64,000 bases of DNA, from NCBI GenBank assembly GCA_963835575.1, contig CAWIGG010000002.1, positions 1,184,001 to 1,248,000 of the forward strand, in the 5' to 3' direction. The notes beneath the pieces were generated by a model that was not told the DNA's origin, ran no database searches, and saw only the letters and a list, made by a program, of their open reading frames with translations. A program made the position numbers and the translations under genes. Below are positions 44,156-60,947 of this stretch, one piece after another. The DNA is from an uncultured Spirochaetota bacterium (GTDB lineage Bacteria > Spirochaetota > Brevinematia > Brevinematales > JAOACQ01). The stretch's first letter is position 1. Every line of letters begins with the position of its first letter.

Positions 44156-45796
44156 ATGTCCCGTGATGCGAATGAGATCATAGGTAAATTTATCAGGCGC
44201 GCTTTCTGGATGACAGACCCGCAGTCCGCCGAATTCAGGCTGTTTTTTCTGGAAATGATCACGGAACTCAGAAACCTGTCCGGCAGGGATTTTAACGCGG
44301 ATATAACACTGGATGATCTGAAACGGACCGTATCGAATATTACCGACAAATACCCTGTCATAAAAAAGATTTCCCTCAACACCGTCTTTAAAACACTCAA
44401 CGCCATGGATTCGTTTGCCAAAGCCGGAGATCTTTTTTCCATCGCTTCGGCTGTTTCGACCTCTTTTCTATCAATCGGAATGCTCTTTATAGGCCCTATG
44501 CCGTATCTTTTATTAAAAGTATTCGCCCCTAACCGTTTAAAATGCGGTGTGATCATGGGAGTGGGCGGCTTGATCGGACTCGAGCTGTATGATACAAAGC
44601 CCACGCCGGTTATACGGAAACGGAATAAATTCTCACCGGCCACAATCATATCGGGCATTTTTTTTACGGTTCTCCTCCTGTTGTCCATCTTTTTAATCCA
44701 GGTACCATTTTTTTATCGTCTTCTAACTTTTCTCTGTTCCGGTATTCTTTTCTTATTCTTTATCTCGAGCCTCAGCCTCGATATTTTCAATCTGAATAGC
44801 AGAAAGAAAACAAAGGATCCCGCTGATCATGAAATTTTTCAGTTTAATATCAATACCGATAGAACGCTTTCTTCCCATTTCAAACTGGATAATGAAGAAG
44901 CCCGCTTTCTTTTCAGTCTTCAATATACCCTGGCCGAATCCAACATCGAGATGACCGTGGATCCGAAAATCAAAGGGAATAAAAGGATCTGGCTTGATAA
45001 ATGGAAAACCAGCATAGAAGCCGAAATCAGCCGCAAACTTGTCACCAGCCGGGCAATATTGGAAGAGGCTATTTTCGGGCCCATGCAGCGCCTATCAAAA
45101 TTAAAAAGAAACCTGATCTATCTTGAGTGCGCTCTTTTTAAGCCGTTTTTCCCCATTGTGGAATTAAAAAATATAGTCATTCCTGAAAAGGAAAGGACAA
45201 TTTCCCAGAATAATCTGACGGAACTTTCCCGGTCAATGAACATTACAATCCCGCCGAAGATTATTCAAAGTACATATCAATCTTCAATTCAGACGATCAG
45301 TGTGGTCAATCTGATAAAAAAAATCACACAGAGCCTGATCACGCCGTCTTTCGGAGGCTTTGCTCCTTTTTCCGTGATCCAGGATTATACCGGACTGGTC
45401 AAGACATCAACGGCAGTGAGCATCGGAGGCATCGGTAAAATACCGAAAAAAAAGGACCTGATTACTCAGGAAAATTCCTATATCATAGGCGGAGGGATTA
45501 TTCTTGAAAAAGAAATGTTCCCGCTTCTCAGCCAGATAGCGGAATACAGCTCCAATGCCGTACTTTCACAGCTGGCCCGGCTGGCTGCTTCATTTAAATT
45601 ATTTTCCGGCGAACTGCCGGATTATATAAACCAGCTGGAATCGATGCTAACGCTTGAAACCCAGCTGAGAGATACGCTGGTAAAAGTATATAATAATAAA
45701 GGAGCGGACCGCGAAGAACTCCGGCAGTCAATTCATTTCCTGGAAATGGGTATAAAATTAAGCAGGGACACGGCCGAGAAAGCAAAGAGGAGATGA
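44156..45796 (+). CDS. Hypothetical membrane protein
   Basis: 546-aa ORF with AGAGGA RBS, upstream TTGCCT-17-TATTAT and several hydrophobic segments. Confidence 0.7.
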   Translation: MSRDANEIIGKFIRRAFWMTDPQSAEFRLFFLEMITELRNLSGRDFNADITLDDLKRTVSNITDKYPVIKKISLNTVFKTLNAMDSFAKAGDLFSIASAVSTSFLSIGMLFIGPMPYLLLKVFAPNRLKCGVIMGVGGLIGLELYDTKPTPVIRKRNKFSPATIISGIFFTVLLLLSIFLIQVPFFYRLLTFLCSGILFLFFISSLSLDIFNLNSRKKTKDPADHEIFQFNINTDRTLSSHFKLDNEEARFLFSLQYTLAESNIEMTVDPKIKGNKRIWLDKWKTSIEAEISRKLVTSRAILEEAIFGPMQRLSKLKRNLIYLECALFKPFFPIVELKNIVIPEKERTISQNNLTELSRSMNITIPPKIIQSTYQSSIQTISVVNLIKKITQSLITPSFGGFAPFSVIQDYTGLVKTSTAVSIGGIGKIPKKKDLITQENSYIIGGGIILEKEMFPLLSQIAEYSSNAVLSQLARLAASFKLFSGELPDYINQLESMLTLETQLRDTLVKVYNNKGADREELRQSIHFLEMGIKLSRDTAEKAKRR

Positions 45797-45816
45797 GGGC
45801 TGTATTATTCATGCAT

Positions 45817-45887
45817 AGACTTATCCAAAAAGTTTTGAAATAGACCCGCTGGTTTGTACCAAATGCGGCAGTGACATAAAGATCATT
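45817..45887 (+). pseudogene. IS91-family (Y2) transposase C-terminal remnant
   Basis: RLIQKV-[frameshift]-EIDPLVCTKCGSDIKII. Confidence 0.68.
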
Positions 45888-46046
45888 CCGGTTTTACAGA
45901 CCGGTTGTTAGTGAGATGTGATGATTTTTTTCTATCAATCTGGCGGCAGAGGGCGCCACAACGCCGGAATGCGGTCTCTCACTCATCTTTTCAATCGGGA
46001 CTTACCCGCCAAAACCCTTGCTTTTGCGGCCTGAGAAAATTTACGG

Positions 46047-48524
46047 TTATTCCTGGTTGAGGAGGGCGTTTAAAAGGGAAAAGATATAGGAATGATACCC
46101 GAGATAATTCAACTGATAATCCTTGAGCAGTTCTACCAGGCCGGATTTATTATTAACCCCTGTCTTGGAGTAAATAAATCCGATATGTCCTTTGACAGTA
46201 CTTTCAGAAATAAACAATTTTTTTGCGACTTCACGGGTTTTATATCCCTGTAAAAGCAGTAAAAGGATCTCTTTTTCCCTTGGGCTCAAACGGTATTTCT
46301 TGAAGAATTCATCCTGCGGCATGGTTACAGATGACAGGATCGGTTTTACATCAATGGCATTCCACCGGAGAGTATCAGTTTTATCCGGTTTTCTGACAGC
46401 AGAAATATTTACCAGCAAGGTACTGATATTCTCAGCAGATTTATATGATTGTTTTCCTGATTTTGGTATAATTTTTAACTCGGCATATTGAACTTCCTTT
46501 CCAGCCAGGGCTTTTCCGGCCAGCACTTTCATATATTTCTGTTCTTCCGGCCGGAGAAAATCCAGTAAAGATATTTCCCGGATTAAATCCGAGTTACTGA
46601 TATTAAGGCTTTTTTCACCCATCCGGTTGATAAATTTTATAACAAAATTCAGGTCTGTCTCTATCAGTATAGTCGGGAGAAGTATAGCCATTTCACGGAA
46701 TCGTTCTTCTTTTTTTTCTATTTCAATTTTTGCCGTTCTAAGATTTTCCAGTGCCTTTTTCCATTTATCAAATAAATTGATCACATGAAGTATGTTTGAC
46801 ACTTCTTCACGGATCGTGTCATAAGCCAGGGGATTAATTTCTGAGATTTCGAAACGGATAATCCCAAAACGGTTATTTTCATAAACAATCGGTAATAATA
46901 AAACTACAGAAGGTTTTTCTACCGGATAGAGAATATCAGAAAAAATATCTCCTGTTTTTTTTTCCTGATGAATTTCTGAAGCCATGTTCCTCTGGTTCTT
47001 ACGATAGTTCATTAATATAAGGGTTTGCTCAGGTATATTCTCATGAATCCCCGGTATATTTGGAAATAGTTCTATAGTACAGCCGGGAATGCCCATCTGG
47101 GGAAGTTCACGATTGAGAATATTTGCCAGTTTGTCATAATCCGGTGAAAGACTCGTATCCCGGGTAATAATTCTGAGATGATAGAGTATTGCCTCCATAC
47201 CTTCAGCTCTGGCTACTTCGCACCTTTGAATCCATTTGGTCAGAAGAAAAGAGGCGTTTAAAAAAATACTTTCAATATTATTCTGTTCCAATATGGGCAT
47301 CTCAATAATTTGACTCAGAATTTCATCTCTGATAATTGTCAGTATTTTCTGCCAGCTGACAATATTGATAATCCGGGAAGAATGCTGCCCTAGAATTTCA
47401 TTAAAAACCATTAAAAACATAGGATTGGATTTCCTGTTTTTTAAATCAAAATACAGTGAATCTAAAAGAACCGTTATGCTATGGCGGAGATTAGAGATCT
47501 CCTTATTTTCCAGGATCATCTCTTCAATTCTATCGGAAACCGCTGTCTTTACCAGATTAAATTTTTCATCAAGGCTATCCGGCCAAATATCCGGTGATTC
47601 ATCATAACCAGAAACAGTTTTTAACGATTTTTCCGAAGCCGGTATATTCCTCCTGTAAACCGGAAAACATCCGCAGGATTCACGAATAATCAGCCTTGTC
47701 GGCAGGAACAATTCTTGAGGAACTTCCTGCCCCTGAGCAGCCTGGAACAGAATTTCCAATGCTTTCCGGCCTTGTTCAAAAATCGGCTGATAGACGGTCG
47801 TGAGCGGCGGATTCATCAATTCTGCATCCGCCACATCATCAAATCCGACCAGGCCGCAGAAAGCAGGAATATCCAGCCCATGAGTACGCAAAACCCTCAG
47901 AAAAGAAATTGCCATATCATCATTGGAGGATACAACGGCATCGAGTGCTATCTTCTTCTTCAGAATGTTTTCCGCGATATATCCCCCATATTCATAACTG
48001 AAATTTCCGGAAAAAATATACTTTTTCTGAAAAGGAATACGATATTTTTTCAGGGCATCGATATATCCGCGAAGCCGTGCGCGTGCTTCCATATTACTCA
48101 GAGAACCGGTAATAAAGCCGATCCTGCTGTAACTATGGGTCTCTATAAGATGTTCCACAGCCTCCCGCATTCCATTCCGGTTATCTATAAATACACCGGG
48201 TATTCCGGGAATCCGGACACCAATACTGACTTTCGGTCCCGGAAAAAGATCACAGTATTCCCGGAACCGGTCATATCCCATGAAATTTCCCAGTGAACTG
48301 GATGCAAAAATCAGTCCCTCTATTTCCGGTGAGTGTGCCAGATCATAAATAAAATTGTGATTATTATCTTCAGGTATTGGCGAATCAAGATTTCTTCCTG
48401 AAATCATTGCAATCCGTACTGATCTTTCCCTGGCTGCGGAGATAACACCTCTCCATAGAGGTAAATGATACCTACCTTCAATCTGGTTGATTAAAAGTCC
48501 AAATATTTTACTGCTGGTTTTCAT
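46047..48524 (-). CDS. Hybrid regulator: LacI-type sugar-binding domain + PAS + LuxR HTH (likely start ATG 48524)
   Basis: IDNRNGM, R..GY, SNDDMA, GFDD and PPLTTVYQP. EERFREMAILLP (PAS entry). LSPREKEIL...LFISESTVKGHI..IY.K (LuxR). Confidence 0.88.
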   Translation of the reverse strand: MKTSSKIFGLLINQIEGRYHLPLWRGVISAARERSVRIAMISGRNLDSPIPEDNNHNFIYDLAHSPEIEGLIFASSSLGNFMGYDRFREYCDLFPGPKVSIGVRIPGIPGVFIDNRNGMREAVEHLIETHSYSRIGFITGSLSNMEARARLRGYIDALKKYRIPFQKKYIFSGNFSYEYGGYIAENILKKKIALDAVVSSNDDMAISFLRVLRTHGLDIPAFCGLVGFDDVADAELMNPPLTTVYQPIFEQGRKALEILFQAAQGQEVPQELFLPTRLIIRESCGCFPVYRRNIPASEKSLKTVSGYDESPDIWPDSLDEKFNLVKTAVSDRIEEMILENKEISNLRHSITVLLDSLYFDLKNRKSNPMFLMVFNEILGQHSSRIINIVSWQKILTIIRDEILSQIIEMPILEQNNIESIFLNASFLLTKWIQRCEVARAEGMEAILYHLRIITRDTSLSPDYDKLANILNRELPQMGIPGCTIELFPNIPGIHENIPEQTLILMNYRKNQRNMASEIHQEKKTGDIFSDILYPVEKPSVVLLLPIVYENNRFGIIRFEISEINPLAYDTIREEVSNILHVINLFDKWKKALENLRTAKIEIEKKEERFREMAILLPTILIETDLNFVIKFINRMGEKSLNISNSDLIREISLLDFLRPEEQKYMKVLAGKALAGKEVQYAELKIIPKSGKQSYKSAENISTLLVNISAVRKPDKTDTLRWNAIDVKPILSSVTMPQDEFFKKYRLSPREKEILLLLLQGYKTREVAKKLFISESTVKGHIGFIYSKTGVNNKSGLVELLKDYQLNYLGYHSYIFSLLNALLNQE

Positions 48525-48561
48525 GCATTCAGCCCCGTTTAAAAAACGAACATCTAAAGCT

Positions 48562-48590
48562 ATTATAGGAACACCCTCCTTATTTGTCAA
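48562..48590 (-). promoter_or_regulatory. Consensus sigma-70 promoter of the hybrid regulator
   Basis: TTGACA-17 nt-TATAAT, a perfect consensus immediately after the operon terminator. Confidence 0.82.
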
Positions 48591-48591
48591 T

Positions 48592-48624
48592 AAAAAAAAA
48601 GCCCCGCGCTAGCGCGGGGCTTTT
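48592..48624 (-). terminator. Intrinsic terminator of the lipoprotein operon
   Basis: AAAAGCCCCGCGCTAGCGCGGGGC followed by T9 on the minus strand. Confidence 0.88.
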
Positions 48625-48643
48625 AACTATTTTGATTCCGTTT

Positions 48644-49438
48644 TTACCATAGATTTGAAACAGCAAGATTGTCCAGATAGAATATTGTATCCTGATTGGT
48701 GGAGGAGCTGACAAACTGGATTCTAACCTTGCTAAAGTTCGTCCATGAGGCAGTGTTGGTGAGAGAACTGCTGGCATAGCCGATAATGCTGTTTGTGTTA
48801 GAGATGAAAGAAGAAATGTGGCACCATGTATCGGCGACAACGGAAGAAGTATAATAGACTGAATAAATCGGGCTATAGGAGGGAGTATAAAACTCCCATT
48901 GGATAGCTGTCATGTTAGCGCGGCAGGCGGCGGGAACATAAATGTCAAAATTTATGGTGAAATTCTGTCCGCTCATGTCGATCGTCCCTGACAAATTCCA
49001 TTGTATTTCCACACCGGTGGAACCGCTTTGATTCGTTGAATATGCATGCACCTGAACACATGCGTTGGCGCCGACATTTGTTAAGATGGCATTATCGGTA
49101 ATGGCCGGACTGCCGCTGGTAAGATTTCCTTTAGACAGATAGGGCCCGCCGGCCGAAGTATCGAAGTTCTGGTTGATAGCCACTATCGATATGAAACTGC
49201 TGGCACTGCTGCTCGATATTTCCGAGGACGCTGATGATGCTGCTAACGAACTGGCTGCCGCAGAGGAAGCCGTAGAAGCGCTTGAGCTCGATGAATCCAA
49301 CGAACTGGCTGGTACAGAGGACGCTGAAGATACGCTTGAGTTCGAGGATGTGTCGGACGAGGAAGAGTTCGGGGCAGTCGAACATCCCATTAAAGTGAAT
49401 AACGCTAAAACAGATGCTGCAAATAATAATTTTTTCAT
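48644..49438 (-). CDS. Lipoprotein with long Ser-rich linker + unrecognised beta-rich domain (paralog 3)
   Basis: Lipobox LMGC, ~60-aa Ser/Ala linker, and motifs TGVEIQW, NFTINFDIYVP, ADTWCHIS and KVRIQF. Confidence 0.85.
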   Translation of the reverse strand: MKKLLFAASVLALFTLMGCSTAPNSSSSDTSSNSSVSSASSVPASSLDSSSSSASTASSAAASSLAASSASSEISSSSASSFISIVAINQNFDTSAGGPYLSKGNLTSGSPAITDNAILTNVGANACVQVHAYSTNQSGSTGVEIQWNLSGTIDMSGQNFTINFDIYVPAACRANMTAIQWEFYTPSYSPIYSVYYTSSVVADTWCHISSFISNTNSIIGYASSSLTNTASWTNFSKVRIQFVSSSTNQDTIFYLDNLAVSNLW

Positions 49439-49503
49439 AAAACCTCCTTTAATTTTATACTCTAGATTTTGTACTTAAAATTTTATACAAAATATCTGTT
49501 TTG

Positions 49504-50598
49504 CTAGGGAGTTACTGTCAGGGATCCGGCATCCATCGATATTTCGTAAAACCCATGCGGGTCCCAGTTTAACACGTTTGTTCCCTGCTTGACCGTGCCG
49601 CCGCCGTTGCTGATGCGGAGATACATACCGGCCGGAAAGTGGTCCGGAAGGGCCCAGCTCCATATCGTGTTGCTTCCGGTATCAACCGGTGTTACTGCCG
49701 ATAAAACCTTCTGCGCTCTCCAGTAGGCCCCGACCCTGGCGACTGTGTCAATCCACATCCAGCCCAGAGCTTTGGCATGCTCCATGCTTCCAGTGACATT
49801 TGCGGTATCGACAGGGGCATACCAATTGGCTCCAGGCAGGATTGTATGGTAGAGGAAAACCAGCCATGTTCCGTTTATATAGTCTGAATCAAGATGACCA
49901 TTCAGGTCTGATGCGGTTTCTCCGCCGGATGCCATATAGACCGGCAGTCTGAACGGGTCTGTGCCGTCGTTCGGCGCAATTGTTCCATTGGCGACCCCGC
50001 GGTTGAGAAAGTACCTATTACTTGCGTATGTTATCCATTGTGTATCACCGTATGGAGAAGCCATGGTCACGACATTGCTCCCGCCTAACTGATCGATAAT
50101 ATATTGCATGTTCGAATCGATTTCTTCAAGCTGGGTGGAAAACGGCGTTCCGCCTGTGCCGGAGTCTGAAAGATCGGCATGAGAATGATGAAATGTGTGA
50201 TTGCCGATCTCATGCCCGTCTTTGACTGCCTGAGACCAGAGGAATTCAAAATTAGCCGATGTATTGCTCCATCCGGCACAGATATAAAATGTCAGGTGAA
50301 CGCCTTCCTCCTGAAGCAAGCTGTAATTCTGGACCTGTGAAGGCTGACCGTCATCGAAAGAGTACGATACTGCGGCCTTAAATCCTGCCCAGTTCAATAT
50401 GATCAGGCTGCCGGGAGCGCCGGCCGGCTTGGGCACATTGGTTGCCGGAGGATAGGGCAGCCCGGAAATTGTACTGTTCCCTTCCGACCCGAATGAAGGG
50501 ACGGATGAAGAGTTGCTGCTGGTGGAAGATCCGGAATCGGAAGAGGGCTGGACTGAACAGGCCGTCAGCATTATAAAGAAAAAAGTGAATACTTTCAT
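49504..50598 (-). CDS. Lipoprotein polysaccharide deacetylase (CE4/NodB fold)
   Basis: Lipobox LTAC, Ser linker, and motifs SFDDG, HEIGNHTFHH, PYG and LYH. Confidence 0.85.
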   Translation of the reverse strand: MKVFTFFFIMLTACSVQPSSDSGSSTSSNSSSVPSFGSEGNSTISGLPYPPATNVPKPAGAPGSLIILNWAGFKAAVSYSFDDGQPSQVQNYSLLQEEGVHLTFYICAGWSNTSANFEFLWSQAVKDGHEIGNHTFHHSHADLSDSGTGGTPFSTQLEEIDSNMQYIIDQLGGSNVVTMASPYGDTQWITYASNRYFLNRGVANGTIAPNDGTDPFRLPVYMASGGETASDLNGHLDSDYINGTWLVFLYHTILPGANWYAPVDTANVTGSMEHAKALGWMWIDTVARVGAYWRAQKVLSAVTPVDTGSNTIWSWALPDHFPAGMYLRISNGGGTVKQGTNVLNWDPHGFYEISMDAGSLTVTP

Positions 50599-50618
50599 AA
50601 ATAAACCTCTGTAATCCG

Positions 50619-50654
50619 GGACAATTCTAAAAACTTAGTTTTTTAGAACCGCCC
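50619..50654. repeat. Degenerate mini-MITE/REP-like palindrome
   Basis: GGACAATTCTAAAAACTTAGTTTTTTAGAACCGCCC. No TSD visible. Confidence 0.65.
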
Positions 50655-50682
50655 AACATTTTATGCGGCTGTTTGGATGCAA

Positions 50683-52623
50683 TTATTTACCAAACTGCCA
50701 GTAATCAATTACAAAAGAATTGACAACATTTACAGTGAACCGCAAATAAAGGTCATGCACACCGCTTATATTACTGACTGCCGTAGTGATATTGGTCCAA
50801 CCGGAAGTATTGGTAAAAGTCAGGGAACCTATTTTTGAACCGGAACCCTGCGGACTGTCAATCCATATATCAATTCTCCCGCCGGCCGATCCTGCTGATA
50901 CTTTAGCGGTAAAGGTCACTGCTCCGGTGTCAAAATCCACGCTTTTATATTTAATACAGCTTCCATTGATAATATTGCTGACAATGATCTGACCGGCGGA
51001 CAGAGCCAGCGTCTTAATATATCCGTACTGCCGGTTCATAGTTTCAGCCTGAACAACAGAGTAAGGGTCCATATTTTTCAATTTCTCCACCCCGTTGGTC
51101 GTCTGAACTACTCTGATAATCAATCCATCCGTATCGTAGTAAAGCCGGTCCATGCAGACACTTCTATGATACGCCGTGGATGCGCCCTCCAGGGTTGCCA
51201 GTGTCCGGTCATGGTAGAAGATGTACCAATTCGTACCGATCTGACCGATGGATGCATGATTGTTGTTGCCGTAATTGACAGGAGGATTATCCAGAATCGT
51301 ACCTTTATAGACAAAATTGGACATCGGATTGTCGCTTATCATATAATCAATTGTGGCGTTAGGAGCGCCGGAAAAGTCGGTGGAATAGGAGAAGTAATAT
51401 TTTCCATTGTATTTATGCATATAGGAAGCCTCGAAAAAGCGCGGGGCATCAATTGTCAAAGCCGTTCCGGCTGTATCCAGCATATCAGCGCTGAGTTTGA
51501 TTACCCGTGCATTTCCCGGGCCGCCGCCGCCGAAATACATATAGCCCTGCCCGTCATCATCCACAAAAACCGCCGGATCAAAGCAATAAGTAAGATTGGA
51601 AGCTCCGGGAGTATTTCTGGTAATGATAGCATGGCCGACAGGGTCAGTCCAGGGCCCTTTAGGGGATGAGCTGGTAACGACTCCTATGTTATCTCCGCCG
51701 TTGCCGAAATACATATAATAAATATTGCTTCTGCAGACGATGGAAGGCGCATAGGTGTGAAAAGCCCAGGGTACGGTTTCTACTGTTGATACCGGCTCCC
51801 CGAGATCAGTCCAGTTGACCAGGTCATCCGATGAAAAGACGGAAACATCATTTATAACGTACGAGCTCTGACTGTCCAGATCGTGGGAAGTATAAAGATA
51901 GACCCGGTTATTGTAAAATCCGAAAACAGGATCCGCAGTGAATTTCTGGGAGATAATTGGATTCCCGAGATCCATAAACCATTGCGGTATATTTCCGCTC
52001 AGGTCCGGTATACTGCTGGAAGAGGAAGAACTGCCGGTCTGGCTTCCTGACGTCCCGCGAAAATAGGCGGCTTTCAAATCGAATTCCAATACCCCGGTGC
52101 CGTCAAAATGAATGCCCATAAGGCGCGGTATTTCCAAGGCATAGCCTACAATCTGGTTGACCGGAATGACCACCGTATGCCACTGGCCGTCGCTAACAAG
52201 GCCGTAAGGCGTCAGATCATTCCACCCGGGATAATCCGGTTCCAGCTGGATATTCAACTGGGCTGTAGCGGCAGCGAGCCGGATGATGAGGACAAGACTT
52301 CCGTTGGTAAAACGGCTGAAATCGGTTCCGTTTACCGGACCGGTACTATCCGGGTTTAGCTTGACACCGCTGCTTCCGGAAGTCTTATCTGCCCTAATAT
52401 GGACATAATTACTTCCATCAGTATCAACTCTGTTGGAAACGGTTGCCGTTCCCCAGGTATCGATATGGGAATGCGGCATCAATGGAAGACCGTCGCCGTA
52501 AAACGCAAGGATTTCAGCGCTTTGGGATGGTGCAGATGATTTAGAAGCCGAAGAACCGGAGTTTCCTGCCTGGATTGAACATGCCGACAGCAATACAAAA
52601 GCCAGGATACAAAACACTTTCAA
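50683..52623 (-). CDS. Lipoprotein GH43 glycoside hydrolase (arabinofuranosidase/xylosidase-like) with N-terminal beta-domain and C-terminal CBM6 (likely TTG start 52623)
   Basis: AGAGGAG RBS 7 nt before TTG, giving MKVFCILAFVLLSAC. GH43 motifs TADP, FDPAVFVDDDG, FFEAS and NNH. CBM6-like VQAET...VDF...GVHDLYLRF...DYWQF. Confidence 0.88.
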   Translation of the reverse strand: MKVFCILAFVLLSACSIQAGNSGSSASKSSAPSQSAEILAFYGDGLPLMPHSHIDTWGTATVSNRVDTDGSNYVHIRADKTSGSSGVKLNPDSTGPVNGTDFSRFTNGSLVLIIRLAAATAQLNIQLEPDYPGWNDLTPYGLVSDGQWHTVVIPVNQIVGYALEIPRLMGIHFDGTGVLEFDLKAAYFRGTSGSQTGSSSSSSSIPDLSGNIPQWFMDLGNPIISQKFTADPVFGFYNNRVYLYTSHDLDSQSSYVINDVSVFSSDDLVNWTDLGEPVSTVETVPWAFHTYAPSIVCRSNIYYMYFGNGGDNIGVVTSSSPKGPWTDPVGHAIITRNTPGASNLTYCFDPAVFVDDDGQGYMYFGGGGPGNARVIKLSADMLDTAGTALTIDAPRFFEASYMHKYNGKYYFSYSTDFSGAPNATIDYMISDNPMSNFVYKGTILDNPPVNYGNNNHASIGQIGTNWYIFYHDRTLATLEGASTAYHRSVCMDRLYYDTDGLIIRVVQTTNGVEKLKNMDPYSVVQAETMNRQYGYIKTLALSAGQIIVSNIINGSCIKYKSVDFDTGAVTFTAKVSAGSAGGRIDIWIDSPQGSGSKIGSLTFTNTSGWTNITTAVSNISGVHDLYLRFTVNVVNSFVIDYWQFGK

Positions 52624-52706
52624 AAACAGTCTCCTCTTTATTAATATTTTTGCCATTGCAAAAAACCGGACTGCGCCCGCAGGACTCAGTCCGGTCCCTT
52701 TATTTT

Positions 52707-54337
52707 TCAATAAAATGATATATTTGTAGCGTATGCATTGATGTTGAAACTTGCGTTGGCATCGGTCAGTGATGTAATGGTGTTTCCATTAATCTTAAAG
52801 TTGTAAAAACTAACCCCATCGATAGTATTGGTTTTACCATAAGCCGGGCTGTTGGTATCTGTTATCCAGGAATGATCTGTACCGACAAGACGGCATTCCC
52901 TGTTTATATTTGCTGAAATATTGGAAAATATCGTATTGGATATGGAACCAATCCCGAAGGCCGTTCTCCAGTTGATACTCTGGACATCCATATCCAGATC
53001 TATAAGCCGTCCGGTGACATACTCGATCCTGATATTATTAAAAAGGGTGCCTGAAATAACAGCCGTATCATCTGCGTCAATGACCAGCGCCCGGTCGACA
53101 AGAATGACATCCACATCGTCATAGGTGACGTTTGATATGGTATCCCCGATGGTCTTGGTTCCGATCTTGCATGCGCCGTAGCCGAAGCAGACGATCTTCC
53201 GGTGAGTAATGCCGTTCACACTCATATAAGGACCGGTTGTCGGATCGACAGTAGTACCATAGGATTGCCCGTCGGGAATATCATCGCTTTTCACGGCCAT
53301 GCAGTCGTCGCCGTCATAGAGGAAGGCGTTGTAAAGGCTGCAGTTGATGCAGTTGTCAAAGTCAACGCCGTCGGTTTGTTCCATGTTGATGACAGCCGGT
53401 TGTTGATAACTTTATAATTGGTGATGGCGATACCGGTGCTCCGGTAAATCAGGGTGGTCCAGAAGCAGGAATCCCGGGAAATGATGCCTTCGACTATGCA
53501 GTTGGTGCTCCCCTCAATTTTTACAAGGAACATCTTTCTGCCGGAAGATTTCAGAACCTTGCCGTTGCCGTCGATGGTTCCTCTTCCCATCAGCCGGGCA
53601 TTGATGACGCCGTTCATACTGATAAAGCCCTGGCTGCACCCCTCGATTATGACATATCCTGCAGGATTAGCCAGCAGTTCGCCCGAAGTCGTGGCGCATT
53701 CCAGAACAGCCCCATCGGCCAGATACATGGTCATGTTGTTCTTTAGATTGAGGGTTTTGGTGCGGTATGTCCCCGGCGGAAAGTAGAGAATATTCCGTGC
53801 CGCGCCTGAAGCCTGATCAATCGCCCCCTGGATGACCGCAGTCACCAAAGTTCCTCCGGTATTGTCCATCCCCGCATAATCCATGATGTTTGTGACATTG
53901 GCATCACCCGGCTTCGGAGGGCTAACCTCGGCGGGATCAATCAGGATAAAAAGCCGTTCCACTCCAAAGGTCTGTGACTGGAGGACCAGATAACCTGGTT
54001 CGGTTGCCGTGAAAGTTATCGTATTTCCTGAGACAGACAGGCTGATGTTTTTGCTGAGCGGACTCAGGGTATAGCCGGAAGCGGATCCGCTGTTTACGGT
54101 CACTGCCACTGAACAATTGGAGCCGGGCCAGTTTAAACGGACATAATTTACCGGGACATCGTATTTGGAAACCCTTTCAACCGCTGCCGGCGATCCGTTT
54201 ATTGCGACCGAATAAATGGAAGCCGCGGATGTCGAACTGCTTGAGGTTCCATTATTGGAGGATGCCGGATTGACGCTGCAGCCGGTAAAGATCAATAAAA
54301 ACAAAAATATTACATTGATAAACCATTGCTTTTTCAT
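52707..54337 (-). pseudogene. Lipoprotein right-handed beta-helix glycoside hydrolase (GH28-like), 1-nt frameshift near 53378
   Basis: Lipobox FTGC. Motifs IQGAID, LYFPPGTY and GRGTIDGNG, then W-N-[Q]-TDGVD, GDDC and CKIG in the shifted frame. May be a sequencing error. Confidence 0.8.
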
Positions 54338-54377
54338 AATAACTCCTCCTGATTTCCCGGGATTGTAAAATAGCGCA

Positions 54378-54411
54378 ATTGCCGGCGAGTTCTGAATAAA
54401 TCGCCGGCAAT
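54378..54411. other. Intergenic hairpin inside the lipoprotein operon
   Basis: ATTGCCGGCGA-loop-TCGCCGGCAAT. A second hairpin ACCGGACTG...CAGTCCGGT lies at about 52665-52696. Confidence 0.6.
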
Positions 54412-54424
54412 CAATTTAATCTTT

Positions 54425-55087
54425 TTAATTAGTATTCAAAACAACGAGATTGGCAATATCAAACATAATATCCTGACCGTCAGCAGGGCTGAGAAACTGG
54501 ATCCTGACCTTGTCAAAGATCCAATCTCCAGGATTTTTTGCGAAACCGCTATAGGTAATATACTGACCTACTTTAATGGGCACGCTTATATGGCACCATG
54601 TATCAGCAGCTATGACTGATTTATCAAAGTAGCATGAATAAATCGGCGTATAGTCGGCCGTGATGGTATTATAAAACGCGAATTGAACAGCGGTCATCAT
54701 TGATCTGCTTGCGGCAGGAACATAAACATCAAAATTAATGGTGAATTTCTGGTCCTTCATATCAGTCGGTTGTTGTAAATCCCACTGTACTTCAACACCG
54801 GTGGCGCCGTATAAATTCTGCGAATAGGCATGGACCTGAACGCAGCTTTTACCGCCGTTTGTTACAATAATACCGTTGTCGGAAATATTTGGACCTGCGC
54901 CGGAAAGCCTCCCTTTAGACATAAAAAAACTGCCGGCTGAGGCAGCGAAACTCTCATCGACGGCCACTACAGGTTTGAAACTATCGCTAACGATACTGCT
55001 GTTACTGCGGACTGTATTGGAACAAGCCGCCAGGATAGACAAAAGCATTGAAGCAAAAATGCTCAGGAAAATCTTTTTCCTTATCAT
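54425..55087 (-). CDS. Lipoprotein with unrecognised beta-rich domain (paralog 2; likely start ATG 55087)
   Basis: GGAGG RBS, lipobox LAAC, and motifs TGVEVQW, FTINFDVYVP, ADTWCHIS and WIFDKVRIQF. Confidence 0.85.
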   Translation of the reverse strand: MIRKKIFLSIFASMLLSILAACSNTVRSNSSIVSDSFKPVVAVDESFAASAGSFFMSKGRLSGAGPNISDNGIIVTNGGKSCVQVHAYSQNLYGATGVEVQWDLQQPTDMKDQKFTINFDVYVPAASRSMMTAVQFAFYNTITADYTPIYSCYFDKSVIAADTWCHISVPIKVGQYITYSGFAKNPGDWIFDKVRIQFLSPADGQDIMFDIANLVVLNTN

Positions 55088-55341
55088 ATAAATCCTCCAG
55101 CCCGAGGGCTTTTCAAATGTGATCATCATTTCTGTATATTTGAAACAGCAAGATCGGCCAGATAGAACAGGATTTCATTACCGGCAGCGGTATCGAGAGT
55201 TCTTAACTGGATTCTGACCTTGTCAAATATCCAGTCTCCGGGATTGCTGGCAAAACCGCTATAGCTGACATTGCTGCCCCCGGTAGTTGAGACATAACCC
55301 TTAATGTGGCTCCATGTATTGGAGACAACGGAGCTTTCATA

Positions 55342-57042
55342 CAGACTGTGTGAAAAAAGAGAATACATTTATAAGATCAGCCATCTAAAGGTTCCTGCTT
55401 ACTTTAAAGAAGAGCCTGAATAAAAAATTACTGATAATCATTGAAATTCAGACTATATTGCGGCTAATAACTTATCAAAACCAGCAATATTCAGAACTCT
55501 TTTAAAATTATAGATAAATGCCGTGAAATTAAACTCGCTTTTTACTTTATCAATCCCCTTCAGCAAGAAATTATTATAACCAAAATTTCCTTTTATTGTT
55601 CCAAATGGATGTTCTGCCAACTCTTTTCTGATTGCAACAATCTTTTGCCCCAATTCACTTCGGACCTTCTCATCGAATTTATCCATATCTTCCTTTCGCA
55701 CCGATAACTTTACCGTCCTGCCTTCTTTGCTTTTTGTGCATAAATGCTTCTTCTCACAATTCTCGTTCCTGCACTTGAATTCCGCTACAGTAATCCCCGT
55801 GTTTTTATCCTGATATACACTTTGATTATTTAATCGTAATCCTTGCGGACAAATCAACTGGTTCTTCTCTTTATCAATCTTGAAATCTTCTGCCAGATAT
55901 CCTTTTGCCGGGATACTTTCTTTCTGCTGCTCTTTGTACCTGGACTTTTTTTCTTTTTCATCGCGCGGGCTTGGAATATAGATTTCATGACCCCCGTCTG
56001 TAAGCGGTAATATCTCACTTTCGCAATAATATCCGGCATCCAGGACATGTATGGTTTTTAATCCCGGTTCGGCTTCAAGTTCTTTCTTTATTTCTTCAAC
56101 TTTATTAACCATATTTCCCGCTTGATGAACATCATTACTTTCATTGGTTACATCCACCGCGACAATCAATTTATTCTTTTCGTCCACTGCTATCTGCGCG
56201 TTGTACAAAACATCCGTTTTCCCTTTATCTTTCCCAATTCTGCCGTCGGGATCATTCCCGTAAACGATTTCAAGTTCCGGATCGGCCTCAAACATTTTTT
56301 TTATCGCTTCTACTTTTTCTTTTCTTGTCTTGAGGCTGTCCAGCTTTTTTTCAATGTTGCTGGATAAAAACTCAAACTCGTTTTCTTCCGATTTATCATT
56401 TTTATCCAATTCCAAAAGATATTTGTCTATTTTTTCATTAATCTTTTTCTCAACTCCTTCAATGCTTTCCCGCCTATAAATATTACCCAGACTGTTTTGC
56501 CCACTTATTTTCGTTCCATCTGTCGCTGTTAATTTAAATGTCAGCAGTTCTAATTTGCGGCATACTTTCAAAAACTCTTTGAAAATGTTTTTTATGCCCT
56601 TAATATTATCCCTTCTGAAATCCGCTATGGTCTTAAAATCAGGCGCTAAGCGGCAGGTCAGCCATATCAGTTCCGTATTCCTTTTACATTCGTTTTCTAA
56701 TTTCCTCGTGGTCCTGACTTTGTTCAAATATCCGTAAATATATATTTTCAACAATACATCCGCTGTGTAGGATGGACGCCCTTTTTTCGCCTCTTTAATT
56801 TTGAATCCCAACCTCCTGATGTTTAGTCTGCTCACATATGCGTCTATAATTCTTACAGGGTTCTTCTCTTCTATCAAACCATCAATAGTTTCCGCGTAAA
56901 GTACTATCTGGTCTCTTGGCTCTCCTGTTATATGGTTCATCTTACACACCTCAAATTTGATTACATATTATACCTTATTAAAATAAATTTGAGGATTTTT
57001 CTCCGCCTTTATTGTCTTACACCGCCTTTTTCACACAGTCTG
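55342..57042 (-). mobile_element. IS1182 family element, complete
   Basis: Perfect 16-bp TIR CAGACTGTGTGAAAAA. 3-bp duplication ATA at 55339-55341 and 57043-57045. Confidence 0.93.
55453..56940 (-). CDS. IS1182 family transposase (likely start ATG 56940)
   Basis: GRPSY, PDFKTIADFR, DGTK, YNAQ, DAGY and EHPFGTIK. Confidence 0.93.
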   Translation of the reverse strand: MNHITGEPRDQIVLYAETIDGLIEEKNPVRIIDAYVSRLNIRRLGFKIKEAKKGRPSYTADVLLKIYIYGYLNKVRTTRKLENECKRNTELIWLTCRLAPDFKTIADFRRDNIKGIKNIFKEFLKVCRKLELLTFKLTATDGTKISGQNSLGNIYRRESIEGVEKKINEKIDKYLLELDKNDKSEENEFEFLSSNIEKKLDSLKTRKEKVEAIKKMFEADPELEIVYGNDPDGRIGKDKGKTDVLYNAQIAVDEKNKLIVAVDVTNESNDVHQAGNMVNKVEEIKKELEAEPGLKTIHVLDAGYYCESEILPLTDGGHEIYIPSPRDEKEKKSRYKEQQKESIPAKGYLAEDFKIDKEKNQLICPQGLRLNNQSVYQDKNTGITVAEFKCRNENCEKKHLCTKSKEGRTVKLSVRKEDMDKFDEKVRSELGQKIVAIRKELAEHPFGTIKGNFGYNNFLLKGIDKVKSEFNFTAFIYNFKRVLNIAGFDKLLAAI

Positions 57043-57692
57043 ATAGAGAACCGAGTAAACCGGGACATAACTGTGAAGAATAGTATCATAAAATGCCCAC
57101 TGGATACCGTTAACTCCGGTAAAGCCTCCTCCATTAGTATAGGTAACATCGGGGACATAAACATCGAAATCAATGGTAAAATTTTCTCCTCTCATATCGG
57201 TCTGCTGGAATAAATTCCACTGCACCTCCACACCTGTGGCTCCGTTGGCGTTCACTGCATTTGCATGCACCTCAAGGCATGCATGGCCTGCGTTACTGAC
57301 TATCGTGTTATCTCCGGCAAGTGCGCCCCCCTTTGAAAGGTAAAAGCTGCCGGTCGAAACATCGAAATTATTGGTGTAGGCCACAACCGCTGTGAAACCG
57401 GCACTGGAACTGGAACCACCGCCGCCGCCGGAAGATGCCGGTGAGGTTGAACATGCCGTAAAAACCGATATTACTATAATTCCCAATGCAAAAAGAACAC
57501 TTTTCATATTTAAAACCTCCACTCATTATTTTTTTATACTTTTCATCCGCTTAATAACAAAATCAGAACAAAATATTATAATGGCAGGATCAATCATTTG
57601 ATAGGTGCAAAAAGTCGGGTTTAAAAAAATATTCCGAGGAATTTGCTTTATGTTTTTCAATTTTCAAAATTTATTTTAATTTAGTGAACAAC

Positions 57693-57711
57693 CCAGTACT
57701 ATTAGTACTGG
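57693..57711. promoter_or_regulatory. Perfect 19-bp palindrome, candidate operator of the lipoprotein operon
   Basis: CCAGTACTA-T-TAGTACTGG, about 185 nt upstream of the first lipoprotein ATG. Confidence 0.65.
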
Positions 57712-57822
57712 TGGATAAAAGATGATATCTTTTAATTTTCCAGTTTAATTAAATTCAGGAAGATTATCCGCTTGCAGAGTAATTAATGACTGTCTACGCT
57801 TATTTTCAATGCAGTCCAGGTA

Positions 57823-57852
57823 TTCAAAAACTTTCTAAATCAGCCGTGCCCA
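57823..57852 (-). pseudogene. IS91-family transposase remnant
   Basis: WARLI*KVFE, with the Q codon mutated to TAG. Confidence 0.55.
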
Positions 57853-57873
57853 TACCAGATCAGGTTTCTTATT

Positions 57874-58152
57874 GTGCGGAAAGAATTCAATCCGGCATTG
57901 AGTGATTCCGCCGTTAATGAATGCTTTGGTTTTTCGGACTGTGAAGCAGAGATTACAGCCAGACTCATTAAGGGAATGAGCTATAACAGCATCAGGCAGA
58001 GCCTCTTTATCAGCCTGGACACAGTCAAGACTTATGTCAATAGAATCTACCGTAAAACCGGCATCAGTAAACGGCAGGAACCGCAAAGGGTATTGCAGAA
58101 TGACGTAAGAGAAAGGAAATATTTTTTCCGGGGCCGGAAAAACTGTTCATGA
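57874..58152 (+). pseudogene. Isolated LuxR-type HTH fragment
   Basis: FSDCEAEI..LIKGMSYNSI..SLFISLDTVKTYVNRIYRK. No sensor domain and no clear RBS; abuts the IS91 remnant. Confidence 0.6.
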
Positions 58153-58156
58153 TCTT

Positions 58157-58834
58157 TTAAGCCCCGCAGTTCTTTTTTACCAGATCATAAATAAATCGGG
58201 CGGTAATGCCCCAGATGATCTCGTCCTGCCAGCGGTATAGATAAATCGCCTGGACGGCATTACCCCAAGGTTTTGAGTAGTATTCAGGGAGGTTCAGTTC
58301 CCTGGCCGGAAAGAGAATGATTTCTTTGCCGTCTTTATCAGTATAGGAAGGATGCACCATGAGACGGGCTTTGTATATTTCAGGTTTATTATTTTCAAAA
58401 TAGGAAACGGGAACGGTAAACACCTTCTCCACCTCTTTATGATTAATAGACAGTTCCTCCAGGTTTTTTGTTTTCGCCAGCCCGACAAAACCGTCTATTG
58501 TCGCGCCCATTGAAGCCACAACTGTATCAACACAGCCGATGATTTCAATTTTATTGCCCGGAATGCCCAATTCCTCGGTTGTCTCCCTGAGGGCCGTATC
58601 CCTGAAATTCCTGTCCATCGCCGGGTCGAACATCCCGCCCGGAAAGCAGATTTCGCCGCCATGCCTGACCTGCTCCGATCTCTTTTGAAAAATAAAATGC
58701 AATTCGCCTTCAATTTTCATCAGCAGTATCAGGACCGCCGTATTGATATATTCATCCCTGCCGTTGATGCCGGGACATGCGGGCAGTTTTTTCTTTAAAA
58801 AATCCAGTTTTTCTTTAAGCAAAATGAACCTCAT
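58157..58834 (-). CDS. Nudix hydrolase, CoA pyrophosphatase family
   Basis: AVLI, R..HGGEICFPGG, ALRETTEELG and IWGITA. Confidence 0.9.
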   Translation of the reverse strand: MRFILLKEKLDFLKKKLPACPGINGRDEYINTAVLILLMKIEGELHFIFQKRSEQVRHGGEICFPGGMFDPAMDRNFRDTALRETTEELGIPGNKIEIIGCVDTVVASMGATIDGFVGLAKTKNLEELSINHKEVEKVFTVPVSYFENNKPEIYKARLMVHPSYTDKDGKEIILFPARELNLPEYYSKPWGNAVQAIYLYRWQDEIIWGITARFIYDLVKKNCGA

Positions 58835-58949
58835 ATATCAATTTAATCTTAATCATAGTCCATAAACTTTCTTTTATCAATAAAACCCTTTCATTTTTTT
58901 GCAAAAAAAAGTGTTCTATTTTAATCTAAAAAAGAGGGGACATTTTACA

Positions 58950-60947
58950 ATGCCGAAATTTAAGGTCCATGCCAATTACAAACCTTCCGGCGACCAGCCG
59001 CTGGCCATAGAGCAGATCACTGAGAATTTCCTGAACGGAAATAAGGCCCAGACGCTTCTCGGCGTCACAGGAAGCGGGAAGACATTTACAATGGCCCATG
59101 TCATTGAGAATCTGCAGGTGCCGACCCTGATCATGTCGCACAATAAAACTCTGGCTGCCCAGCTTTTCCGCGAGTTCAGGGACTATTTTCCGGACAATGC
59201 CGTCGAATATTTTGTGTCATACTATGATTATTACCAGCCGGAGGCTTATGTGCCTCAGCGCGACCTTTATATAGAAAAGGATGCTAAGATCAATGATGAA
59301 ATCGACAGAATGCGCGTTTCCGCCGTCGCATCGCTCATGGACAGGCAGGACGTCGTCATTGTCGCTTCCGTTTCATGCATCTACGGGCTGGGCGCACCGG
59401 CCGACTACAAACAGCTTATGCTTTTAATTAAAAAAGGAATGGATTCCGGGCGCGACGACATCATCCATCAGCTGATAAAAATCCAGTATGAGCGGAGCGA
59501 TTTCGACCTCACGCGCGCGGCCTTCCGCGTCAAGGGCGATATCATTGATATCCATACCGCCTATTCCAGGGAAGTGATCCGCGTCGGGTTTTACGGGAAC
59601 GAGATCGAATCGATAAAGAGAATGAATTACCTCACCGGCAAATTCATCGAGGAACTCGACAGGGTCGTCATATACCCGGCGAAGCTCTTTCTGACGACCG
59701 ATGATAAAATGAAAGCGGCTATTGTTTCCATTGAGCTTGAGCTGGAGGAAAGGCTTAAACAGCTCAAATCGCAGGGCAAAGAGATAGAAGCCTACAGGCT
59801 TGAGTCCAGGACCCGCTACGATATCGAAATGATGCAGGAAATGGGCTACTGCAGCGGGATAGAGAATTATTCGCGCCATCTCTCCTTCAGAAAGCCGGGG
59901 GACAGGCCTTTTGTCCTGCTTGATTATTTTCCATCCGGTTTCCTGACGATTATAGACGAATCCCATCAATCCATTCCGCAGATAGGCGGAATGTTTAACG
60001 GCGACCGTTCCCGGAAACAGGTCCTGGTGGACTTCGGATTCCGCCTGCCTTCCGCGCTGGACAACCGCCCGCTCAGGTTTGAGGAATTTGAAGGCATGAT
60101 CGGAAAGACGCTTTATGTTTCCGCAACGCCGGCAGATTATGAATTGAAAAAAAGCAGTGCTATAGTTGAACAGATCATCCGGCCGACCGGCCTGATCGAC
60201 CCCGAGGTCGAGATACGAAAGACCGCAGGACAGATTGACGACATCATACTGGAAGTGAAAGCAAGGATCAAAAATCACGAAAGGACACTGATCACGACCC
60301 TGACTAAAAAGATGGCCGAGGACCTTTCGGATTACCTCACTGAAAACGGATTGAAGGTCGCCTATCTGCATTCGGAAATAGAAACGATCGAAAGGGTCGA
60401 GATTTTAAAAAAGCTCAGGCTCGGCACTTATGATATCCTTGTCGGCATCAATCTCCTGAGGGAAGGGATCGATCTTCCGGAAGTCTCACTTGTGGTCATA
60501 CTGGACGCCGATAAAATGGGATTTCTGCGCTCGGCGCGGTCACTGATCCAGATCATCGGCAGGAGCGCCCGGCATATCAATGGAAAAGTCATCATGTACG
60601 CCGACAATATGACCGATTCCATCAATGAGGCGTTGCGGGAAACCAACCGGAGAAGAAAAATACAGATGGAACATAATATAAAAAACAATATTACCCCGAA
60701 GACGATACAGAAGGAAATTACCGATATACTGGAAAGAAAATTAGAGGCTGAGGTAGAAAAAGTCGATAAAATAGCGGAATACAAGAAAAAATATATCGAA
60801 AAGAAGAGTTTATTAAAAGAATTGGAAAAATTGATGTATCATTACTCGGAAAATCTTGAATTTGAAAAAGCGGCCGAGGTCAGGGATGAAATCCTGGCCC
60901 TTGAGGGAAAGAAGAAACCCGCGCCGGATATTCTCCCGGAAGGTTAA
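58950..60947 (+). CDS. uvrB: Excinuclease ABC subunit B (likely start ATG 58950)
   Basis: GVTGSGKT, YYDYYQPEAY, DESH, FGFRLPSA and a C-terminal UVR domain. Confidence 0.98.
   Translation: MPKFKVHANYKPSGDQPLAIEQITENFLNGNKAQTLLGVTGSGKTFTMAHVIENLQVPTLIMSHNKTLAAQLFREFRDYFPDNAVEYFVSYYDYYQPEAYVPQRDLYIEKDAKINDEIDRMRVSAVASLMDRQDVVIVASVSCIYGLGAPADYKQLMLLIKKGMDSGRDDIIHQLIKIQYERSDFDLTRAAFRVKGDIIDIHTAYSREVIRVGFYGNEIESIKRMNYLTGKFIEELDRVVIYPAKLFLTTDDKMKAAIVSIELELEERLKQLKSQGKEIEAYRLESRTRYDIEMMQEMGYCSGIENYSRHLSFRKPGDRPFVLLDYFPSGFLTIIDESHQSIPQIGGMFNGDRSRKQVLVDFGFRLPSALDNRPLRFEEFEGMIGKTLYVSATPADYELKKSSAIVEQIIRPTGLIDPEVEIRKTAGQIDDIILEVKARIKNHERTLITTLTKKMAEDLSDYLTENGLKVAYLHSEIETIERVEILKKLRLGTYDILVGINLLREGIDLPEVSLVVILDADKMGFLRSARSLIQIIGRSARHINGKVIMYADNMTDSINEALRETNRRRKIQMEHNIKNNITPKTIQKEITDILERKLEAEVEKVDKIAEYKKKYIEKKSLLKELEKLMYHYSENLEFEKAAEVRDEILALEGKKKPAPDILPEG

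Follow-up and report, generated by a model that had tools for sequence, protein, structure and literature searches.

We analysed a 64,000-nucleotide stretch of DNA (the window; C2:1184001-1248000) from an uncultured Spirochaetota bacterium of the order Brevinematales (genome G000; assembly 4.39 Mb, 94% complete). The window holds an island at 45797-58156 with six lipoprotein genes and a LacI-type regulator gene, all on the minus strand. On balance, sequence and model evidence leads us to read this island as an accessory cassette of lipid-anchored proteins that would trim side groups from xylan at the cell surface. Its core pairs a lipoprotein domain with the fold of a carbohydrate-binding module (CBM) and a beta-helix enzyme resembling glycoside hydrolase family 28 (GH28). 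In the G000 assembly, one of the three domain lipoproteins (lp1, lp2 and lp3) is inactivated by an insertion sequence (IS) and the beta-helix gene is frameshifted. The system-level idea, the lipobox carbohydrase strategy, is already known; the novelty lies in the domain and the enzyme clade.

A conserved pair of predicted binding domain and beta-helix enzyme

Gene calls confirmed the order of the six genes given in a preliminary description of this DNA. In the direction of transcription, the structural genes are:

57043..57507, minus strand: 5′ part of lp1 (signal peptide, lipobox, Gly/Ser tether and first two thirds of the domain)
55342..57042, minus strand: IS1182-family element, 1701 bp, with its transposase at 55453-56949
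55126..55341, minus strand: 3′ part of lp1, severed by the IS
54425..55087, minus strand: lp2, lipoprotein with the CBM-fold domain, intact; source of the AlphaFold model
52707..54337, minus strand: GH28-like beta-helix lipoprotein, frameshifted; intact orthologues in G007 (544 aa) and G011 (535 aa)
50683..52656, minus strand: lipoprotein with a CBM30/ExoP_C-like N-domain, GH43 and CBM6, intact; Pfam matches above cut-offs
49504..50598, minus strand: carbohydrate esterase family 4 (CE4) deacetylase lipoprotein; PF01522, E 1e-14
48644..49438, minus strand: lp3, lipoprotein with a long Ser tether and the CBM-fold domain, intact

The lipobox Cys and Ser-rich tether previously noted on all six products were recovered with a heuristic filter rather than SignalP (a lipobox-like Cys and the Ser count in the next 40 residues, here 10-23), although the tether of lp2 is short.

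We compared G000 with 42 other Brevinematia genomes, 43 in total, among them four congeners (G001-G004) and three members of another genus of the same family (G007, G010 and G011). The domain and the beta-helix occur in the same 3 of 43 genomes (G000, G007 and G011). GH43 and CE4 have only 29-34% identical homologues elsewhere in the class, those of CE4 being 29% identical and confined to 2 of the 42 other genomes; the conserved unit is thus the domain plus the beta-helix. The G007 and G011 clusters, ordered lpA-lpB-beta-helix-lpC with an intact enzyme, contain neither GH43 nor CE4 nor the regulator, and we regard these three genes, on sequence grounds, as strain-specific additions. Among the genomes and loci examined, none besides G000 had all six genes together.

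We examined the linkage further in 33 genome loci and 72 metagenome loci of the beta-helix family. Among the genome loci, the domain was fused or adjacent in 7 of 7 enzymes with 48-100% identity and in 0 of 26 with ≤44%. Three of these seven are from G007 and G011, the other four are labelled Polyangiaceae (twice), Deltaproteobacteria and Proteobacteria, and one of the seven is a contig-end fragment. The metagenome loci were gathered with the beta-helix alignment, the domain being too divergent for a contig scan; it lay directly upstream in 3 of 6 loci at ≥48% identity and in 0 of 66 others, counts that include many near-duplicates and many short outer-clade loci and are not independent. Of the inner-clade exceptions, L109 and L172 begin inside the gene and L108 is a true miss (50% identity, with 8 kb upstream seen). 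Separately, tandem GH28-like genes behind one binding-domain gene (L105:1134-4501, L107:7773-11199 and G011 C4/C52) suggest two specificities, and a Bacillota locus (L051) encodes a dockerin-fused relative. An outer clade without the domain (L056, L058, L066, L070 and L110-L170) often lies beside a CE15 glucuronoyl esterase and GH30 in Polyangia-type loci.

The domain has a predicted fold like that of type B CBMs

The domain spans about 175 aa. Its window copies matched no Pfam family above cut-off and nothing in NCBIfam, and their best PDB match had an E value of 0.4. A word-based homologue search with lp2 returned only lp2 itself, and relatives came with a profile search: a profile of eight sequences retrieved 104 representatives after clustering at 50% identity (79 at E ≤ 1e-10), mostly 200-330-aa proteins with a lipobox-like Cys. 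The AlphaFold model of lp2 (pLDDT 85.6) is a jelly roll that matches CBM15, CBM44 and CBM22 with effectively tied Z scores of 13.2, 13.1 and 13.0. An earlier single-sequence model (pLDDT 58) gave no usable fold match and was discarded.

Type B CBMs (CBM15, 22, 44, 4, 27 and 11) share this modelled jelly roll, at Z 12-13 and a root-mean-square deviation of 2.6-3.1 Å over ~140-150 residues, as well as the fusions to GH and CE enzymes. Unlike them, the domain shows only 8-18% identity and no significant PDB sequence match, is mostly found in stand-alone lipoproteins and includes circular permutants. The window domain matched none of the existing families CBM15, 22, 27, 30, 4_9 and SGBP_B_XBD above the curated cut-off, and in the ESM Atlas it lay near CBM27/CBM30/SGBP-B-type clusters (0.94-0.96), which we treat as a lead. 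Trp and Tyr residues are nearly invariant across the family. Five proteins carry the domain fused to the same beta-helix (P0014, P0026-28 and P0139) and one carries it fused to GH43-CBM6 (P0138, whose GH43 is 46% identical to that of the island), so that each of the two glycosidase types in the island has a counterpart joined to the domain in other proteins. SGNH esterases occur in the domain proteins P0139 and P0206.

The domain thus combines the features of a CBM, namely a (modelled) jelly-roll fold, conserved aromatics and fusions to carbohydrate-active enzymes (CAZymes). Given this fold and the fusions, the lipoproteins are likely non-catalytic glycan binders that work with debranching enzymes, as the preliminary description had supposed when it proposed that they capture glycan. 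We propose the domain as a candidate new CBM family, linked to one GH28-like clade across spirochaetes and myxobacteria. A literature search that excluded CAZy, subscription journals and supplements found nothing on the domain, the GH28-like clade or the CAZymes of Brevinematales; the clade may already have an entry in CAZy or in supplementary tables.

Within the window, the paralogues share 70-84% DNA identity in stretches. In a quick tree, the window copies group together (weak support, SH-aLRT 86) and the G007 and G011 copies pair up; one-to-one orthology between the three window lipoproteins and the three of G007 was unsupported. Across the phylum, scoring seven candidates per genome, we found the domain in at least 5 of 401 genomes. 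The extras beyond the class (G104 and G171) are circular permutants with no CAZyme neighbour seen. Permuted copies (P0146, P0163, P0164, P0175, P0177, P0188, P0206 and L090:9586-10185) are secreted or lipoproteins in other Spirochaetota, and it is unusual for a CBM fold to be permuted in nature.

The enzyme and its substrate

The beta-helix clade shares its fold and motifs I and II, (E/N)TDG and GDD, with GH28 enzymes such as polygalacturonases, the rhamnogalacturonidases BT4146/BT4153 and xylogalacturonan hydrolase. It differs from them in an extra N-terminal domain, in its xylan-type neighbours and in the remaining motifs: the RIK of motif IV is replaced throughout by VID or similar, and motif III is variable, its His mostly missing and present only in G007-type copies. 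The full (G/S)HG and RIK signature of GH28 polygalacturonases is not found in the clade. Intact relatives score above the PF00295 cut-off and the two window halves below it. In the accessible part of one report, RIK is thought to contact the substrate carboxylate and motif III is given as (G/S)HG (PMC10239142). With the catalytic Asp motifs kept and RIK lost, the enzyme would release a uronic acid that is linked to a neutral sugar.

Neighbouring genes point to xylan. The survey covered 44 chosen open reading frames (ORFs) and 122 of 202 listed ORFs, the remainder having been scanned already or dropped by eye. Xylan-type genes (GH8, GH10, GH11, GH30, GH43 and CE15) accompany the enzyme in 9 of 30 non-Brevinematales genome loci, a count that lacks a background rate for CAZyme-rich myxobacteria, and a gene like polysaccharide lyase family 9 (PL9) does so in 1 of 30. 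Around the 72 metagenome loci, single-sequence probes, in which PL9 was the sole pectin family, found CE15 (15), GH30 (10), GH43 (3), GH10 (2), GH8 (2) and PL9 (0). Clear xylan loci in the inner clade are limited to L047, where GH8, domain and beta-helix lie beside an FGGY kinase and a ROK regulator, and L107, with the order major facilitator superfamily (MFS) transporter, GH8, GH10, FGGY kinase, domain, two beta-helices and GH10.

Xylanase genes also lie elsewhere in these genomes. G000, G007 and G011 each have 3-4 GH10 genes, and no PL1 or UxaC match was found in any of the three genomes, which suggests that the enzyme serves to take off a blocking group and not to supply uronate for catabolism. 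In G000, an array of GH9, GH5 and GH10 with CBM2 tails and lipoprotein-like N termini lies at C2:222-241 kb (eight genes examined), and an ATP-binding cassette (ABC) sugar transporter is encoded together with GH43, GH10 and an FGGY kinase ~800 kb from the island, at C2:422-438 kb.

Island GH43 resembles arabinoxylan arabinofuranohydrolases of subfamily 16 in its CBM6 tail and aligned catalytic Asp, Asp and Glu (best PDB matches 5a8c, E 3e-102, and 3c7e, E 5e-81). It differs from 5a8c and 3c7e in having a lipid anchor and an N-domain instead of a dockerin or plain signal peptide. This N-domain (52027-52518) resembles ExoP_C/CBM30 clusters in the ESM Atlas (score 0.95, a lead), has no other copy in the genome and takes the position of the lp domain in P0138. 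For CE4, the best PDB match reached only E 3e-4. Both domain assignments of the preliminary description passed Pfam cut-offs.

Several observations weigh against surface trimming of xylan, besides the missing background rate and the frequent near-duplicates among metagenome loci. Most CE15 and GH30 neighbours belong to the outer clade without the domain, no xylan gene lies beside the G007 or G011 clusters, and the neighbours of L048, L049, L105 and L106 are uninformative. L108 lacks the domain in its 8 kb upstream. The leading Foldseek match of the domain is a gingipain adhesin domain, and a shared jelly-roll fold is no proof of function. Neither G000 nor G011 gave a match to class II xylose isomerase; next to its FGGY kinase, G000 has only a sub-threshold barrel resembling xylose isomerase (G000:C2:436527-437672), which fails the class II XylA model and is possibly a divergent xylose isomerase. 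G000 has just two TonB-dependent receptors, the nearest 31 kb from the locus, and spirochaete lipoproteins can be periplasmic.

An alternative that we consider unlikely is a pectin side module, in which the beta-helix would be a rhamnogalacturonan or xylogalacturonan hydrolase, the domain would bind pectin, and GH43 and CE4 would trim arabinan and acetyl groups. The best PDB and NCBIfam matches of the enzyme are all GH28 pectin enzymes, with NCBIfam scores all <100 bits, far below cut-offs of 500-800. A 2-keto-3-deoxy-6-phosphogluconate (KDPG) aldolase gene and a PfkB gene directly upstream of the L046 fusion also fit pectin, as does the one PL9-like neighbour, and RIK loss is also expected in GH28 enzymes with a neutral +1 sugar. 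Against this stand the unmatched PL1 and UxaC, the 9 to 1 excess of xylan- over pectin-type neighbours in the 30 loci, and a GH43 closest to arabinoxylan enzymes.

Within the xylan reading, we tentatively put forward a more specific proposal, possible but short of probable: the beta-helix clade would be a uronidase on xylan, acting for example on the reducing-end galacturonic acid or on side-chain uronate freed by CE15. Its partner would be a new CBM family that recognizes this epitope as a free, SGBP-like lipoprotein outside Bacteroidota, common to spirochaetes and myxobacteria. The xylan reducing-end sequence contains galacturonic acid. That such a reducing-end sequence exists, and that GAUT12 is involved, is described in the available portion of one source (PMC6852159).

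An inserted island with two disrupted genes

The island lies between two conserved genes:

44156..45796, plus strand: left flank, gene for a 546-aa membrane protein outside known families, conserved according to flank comparison in congeners
58157..58834, minus strand: right flank, NUDIX gene, followed by divergent uvrB (58899-60947)

None of the four congeners has the block 45797-58156 at this site: in G002, G003 and G004 the left-flank gene directly borders NUDIX-uvrB, and in G001 it lies 385 bp from uvrB. The block is thus an inserted island, as the preliminary description had it. GC content is 47% in the structural genes and 42% in the genome. The G007 and G011 clusters lie directly upstream of and divergent from uvrB, so that the domain and beta-helix clusters of all three genomes are divergent from this gene. 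In G011, an lp fragment is followed by a second beta-helix gene, and no domain and beta-helix cluster was found in G010, of the same genus. Vertical descent with losses and transfer beside uvrB may both fit this distribution. As a side observation, the 546-aa gene is kept next to NUDIX-uvrB-xerD in 4 of 4 congeners, and an AT-rich 193-aa orphan and an IS481-type transposase lie downstream of the XerD-like gene (window:62086-63972).

Two of the six genes are broken in this assembly, and the preliminary description had overlooked both defects. lp1 is split by the IS1182 element (transposase NF033551, 318.8 bits, cut-off 270), which has 16-bp terminal inverted repeats and a 3-bp target duplication; without it, lp1 is an open 225-aa frame. 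Six further copies in the genome are 99.7-99.9% identical, and about 15 MITE-like 99-bp elements with the IS1182 terminal repeat are spread across G000 (for example, C2:60488-60586 and C4:730448-730546).

The reading frame of the beta-helix gene shifts at 53378, directly ahead of the first catalytic motif (xTDG). Among 33 G000 genes covered by relatives' proteins, this gene alone is split, one further split call having been discounted as adjacent ABC paralogues; the assembly is therefore not generally frameshifted. A separate 1989-bp contig with lp2 is exactly as long as the span from 53378 to the IS repeat branch point (55366), and no repeated 30-mers occur in 52700-55300. From this size alone, reads may disagree at 53378, and the frameshift may be one of two alleles. 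Three DNA sequencing runs covered mainly the IS and left the frameshift site uncovered.

These lesions raise the alternative of decaying cargo, with a core dead in this strain and GH43, CE4 and the regulator as unrelated genes at a variable site, lacking a coordinated function. Two of six genes are broken in an assembly that is not generally frameshifted, the insertion may exert polar effects from its place in the first gene, and a U-tailed hairpin separates the beta-helix from GH43 and CE4, which, like the regulator, are missing from the G007 and G011 clusters. We nevertheless judge this scenario to be unlikely: the two halves of the beta-helix are conserved to a similar degree (3′ half 57%, 5′ half 54% identity with the G011 copy), the 1989-bp span suggests disagreeing reads at the frameshift, and P0138 joins the domain to a similar GH43-CBM6.

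Regulatory features

The remaining features concern expression of the island:

46047..48524, minus strand: LacI-type sugar sensor-(PAS-like)-LuxR/GerE helix-turn-helix (HTH) regulator, 825 aa, cytoplasmic; Pfam PF13377 and PF00196
48562..48590, minus strand: sigma-70 consensus promoter of the regulator, 12/12 match, 17-nt spacer
48597..48624, minus strand: intrinsic terminator ending the lipoprotein operon, perfect 14-bp inverted repeat and T-run
50625..50648, no strand: intergenic inverted repeat and RNA hairpin core between GH43 and CE4, from repeat search and folding
52660..52700, minus strand: GC-rich hairpin and U-tract after the beta-helix gene, −26.4 kcal/mol (raw energy, no shuffle control)
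54376..54411, minus strand: hairpin between lp2 and the beta-helix, whole gap −23.1 kcal/mol (raw energy, no shuffle control)
57693..57711, no strand: perfect 9-1-9 palindrome upstream of lp1, from an inverted-repeat scan
57874..58152, plus strand: small divergent LuxR/GerE HTH ORF, 92 aa, at the island edge; PF00196, E 2e-8

The terminator and promoter were as previously described, the latter being the sole 12/12 match among 63 sites, and both hairpins, after lp2 and after the beta-helix, fold as expected; that at 52660..52700 may be terminator-like or mRNA-stabilizing. The palindrome itself is real, but as a regulon motif it was rejected, having one match in the genome at ≤2 mismatches. It is also absent upstream of the G007 and G011 clusters, and a 400-kb control contains ~0.8 inverted repeats of 8 bp per kb (nested counts), so that operator function is unsupported.

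The LacI and LuxR parts of the regulator were confirmed, whereas Pfam detected no PAS domain in it, finding one only in a 38%-identical homologue. Its sensor has more than 20 paralogues in G000, two of which seem frameshifted (G000:C3:7802-9542 and C6:121739-123560). The closest homologues (37-38%), in G002 and G006, adjoin GH10/GH12/GH1 or GH26/GH5 with ABC sugar-binding genes; for a homologue in G008, no CAZyme was evident by eye among the neighbours. The small LuxR ORF, also overlooked before, gave tblastx matches to other LuxR tails and may be a remnant or a second regulator.

Comparison with known systems

Published excerpts on Saccharophagus degradans 2-40 report 34 lipobox carbohydrase or CBM genes. 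They describe carbohydrases that carry a lipobox and polyserine linkers, debranching enzymes among them, alongside CBM-only proteins, in a system that has neither SusC/D nor a cellulosome (PMC2386152, PMC3124978). The island is similar in its lipobox anchoring, Ser tethers, debranching enzymes and lack of a cellulosome, with a surface location that is predicted here. It differs in belonging to a spirochaete and in placing, in one operon, three stand-alone paralogues of a domain that falls outside curated families and a divergent GH28-like partner. G000 as a whole shows the strategy, with lipobox and Ser tether on CAZymes and CBM-only proteins in many systems; the heuristic filter counted 238 lipobox-like ORFs of ≥150 aa, and in 37 of them at least 8 of the 40 residues that follow the Cys are Ser. 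A surface role of the lipoprotein tether is known from Borrelia, according to the accessible text of PMC2987989.

Surface glycan-binding proteins (SGBPs) of Bacteroidota offer a second comparison. The consulted portions of two reports cover SGBP-B lipoproteins in the B. ovatus XyGUL (PMC4850273) and CHU_1279 (PMC12016534), and the Pfam family is PF18329. By prediction, the island likewise sets a beta-sandwich lipoprotein without catalytic function next to surface enzymes; unlike SGBP-B systems, it has no SusC/SusD pair, and its single domain lacks Ig spacers. Family members match PF18329 weakly: three of 43 (P0191, P0209 and P0216) exceeded its cut-off, and the window domain, at E 0.08, fell far below it. 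SGBP-B itself was absent among the fold matches listed for the lp2 model. Co-located CAZymes and a regulator recall a polysaccharide utilization locus (PUL), but the SusC/SusD pair is absent from the locus. In line with the preliminary description, which saw no SusC/SusD, ABC transporter or dockerin/cohesin in the island, SusD is unmatched in G000 (and in G007 and G011), no ABC, MFS or phosphotransferase system (PTS) transporter lies in 45797-58156, and no dockerin or cohesin gave a Pfam hit in the island proteins. By analogy, we class the cassette as an SGBP plus debranching-enzyme set of the S. degradans lipobox type, not as a PUL, a cellulosome or a new class.

Proposed mode of action

In our model, lipobox-like signals and Ser tethers would anchor the proteins encoded by the inserted island, in which the domain is linked to the beta-helix. 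The stand-alone lipoproteins would bind soluble glycan as SGBP-B-type or CBM-only proteins do, giving in trans what fusion gives in cis. The beta-helix would act on uronic acid linked to neutral sugar rather than on polygalacturonan, GH43, judging from its close homologues, would remove arabinose from arabinoxylan, and CE4 would deacetylate a substrate for which support is weak. The LacI-type sensor may bind an imported sugar and switch on the operon, with backbone xylanases and transporters supplied by loci elsewhere in the genome.

That the lipoproteins are instead adhesins, or protein partners that dock or stabilize the beta-helix, strikes us as improbable. Their tight linkage to one beta-helix clade only would fit such a role, as would the Foldseek results for the lp2 model (gingipain adhesin first, then CBM15 and CBM27, about E 1e-5); the role of CHU_1279 goes beyond binding, as far as the accessible text of its report conveys (PMC12016534). 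The fusion linkers are, however, long, acidic and of low complexity, as is typical of CBM tethers, GH43 and SGNH enzymes are further fusion partners of the domain, and CBMs dominate the structural matches.

The preliminary description went further and proposed a self-contained, categorically new 'enzyme lawn'. This we find very hard to credit: despite lipobox-like signals on all six genes, a genome without SusD and an island with its own regulator, the block encodes neither a backbone xylanase nor a transporter, for which the genome has separate loci (C2:222-241 kb and C2:422-438 kb), the six-gene set does not recur, and the same design is ordinary in the host genome and published for S. degradans.

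The significance of the locus lies instead in its core: the domain is a candidate new CBM family, whose 104 clusters at 50% identity include circular permutants, and the GH28-like clade has a non-pectin substrate suggested by its motifs and neighbouring genes. The locus also points to the use of surface-type lipoprotein CAZymes and stand-alone binders without SusC/D in free-living Brevinematales. A beta-helix-fold uronidase on xylan, if the proposal is true, would be a missing accessory activity for hemicellulose breakdown.

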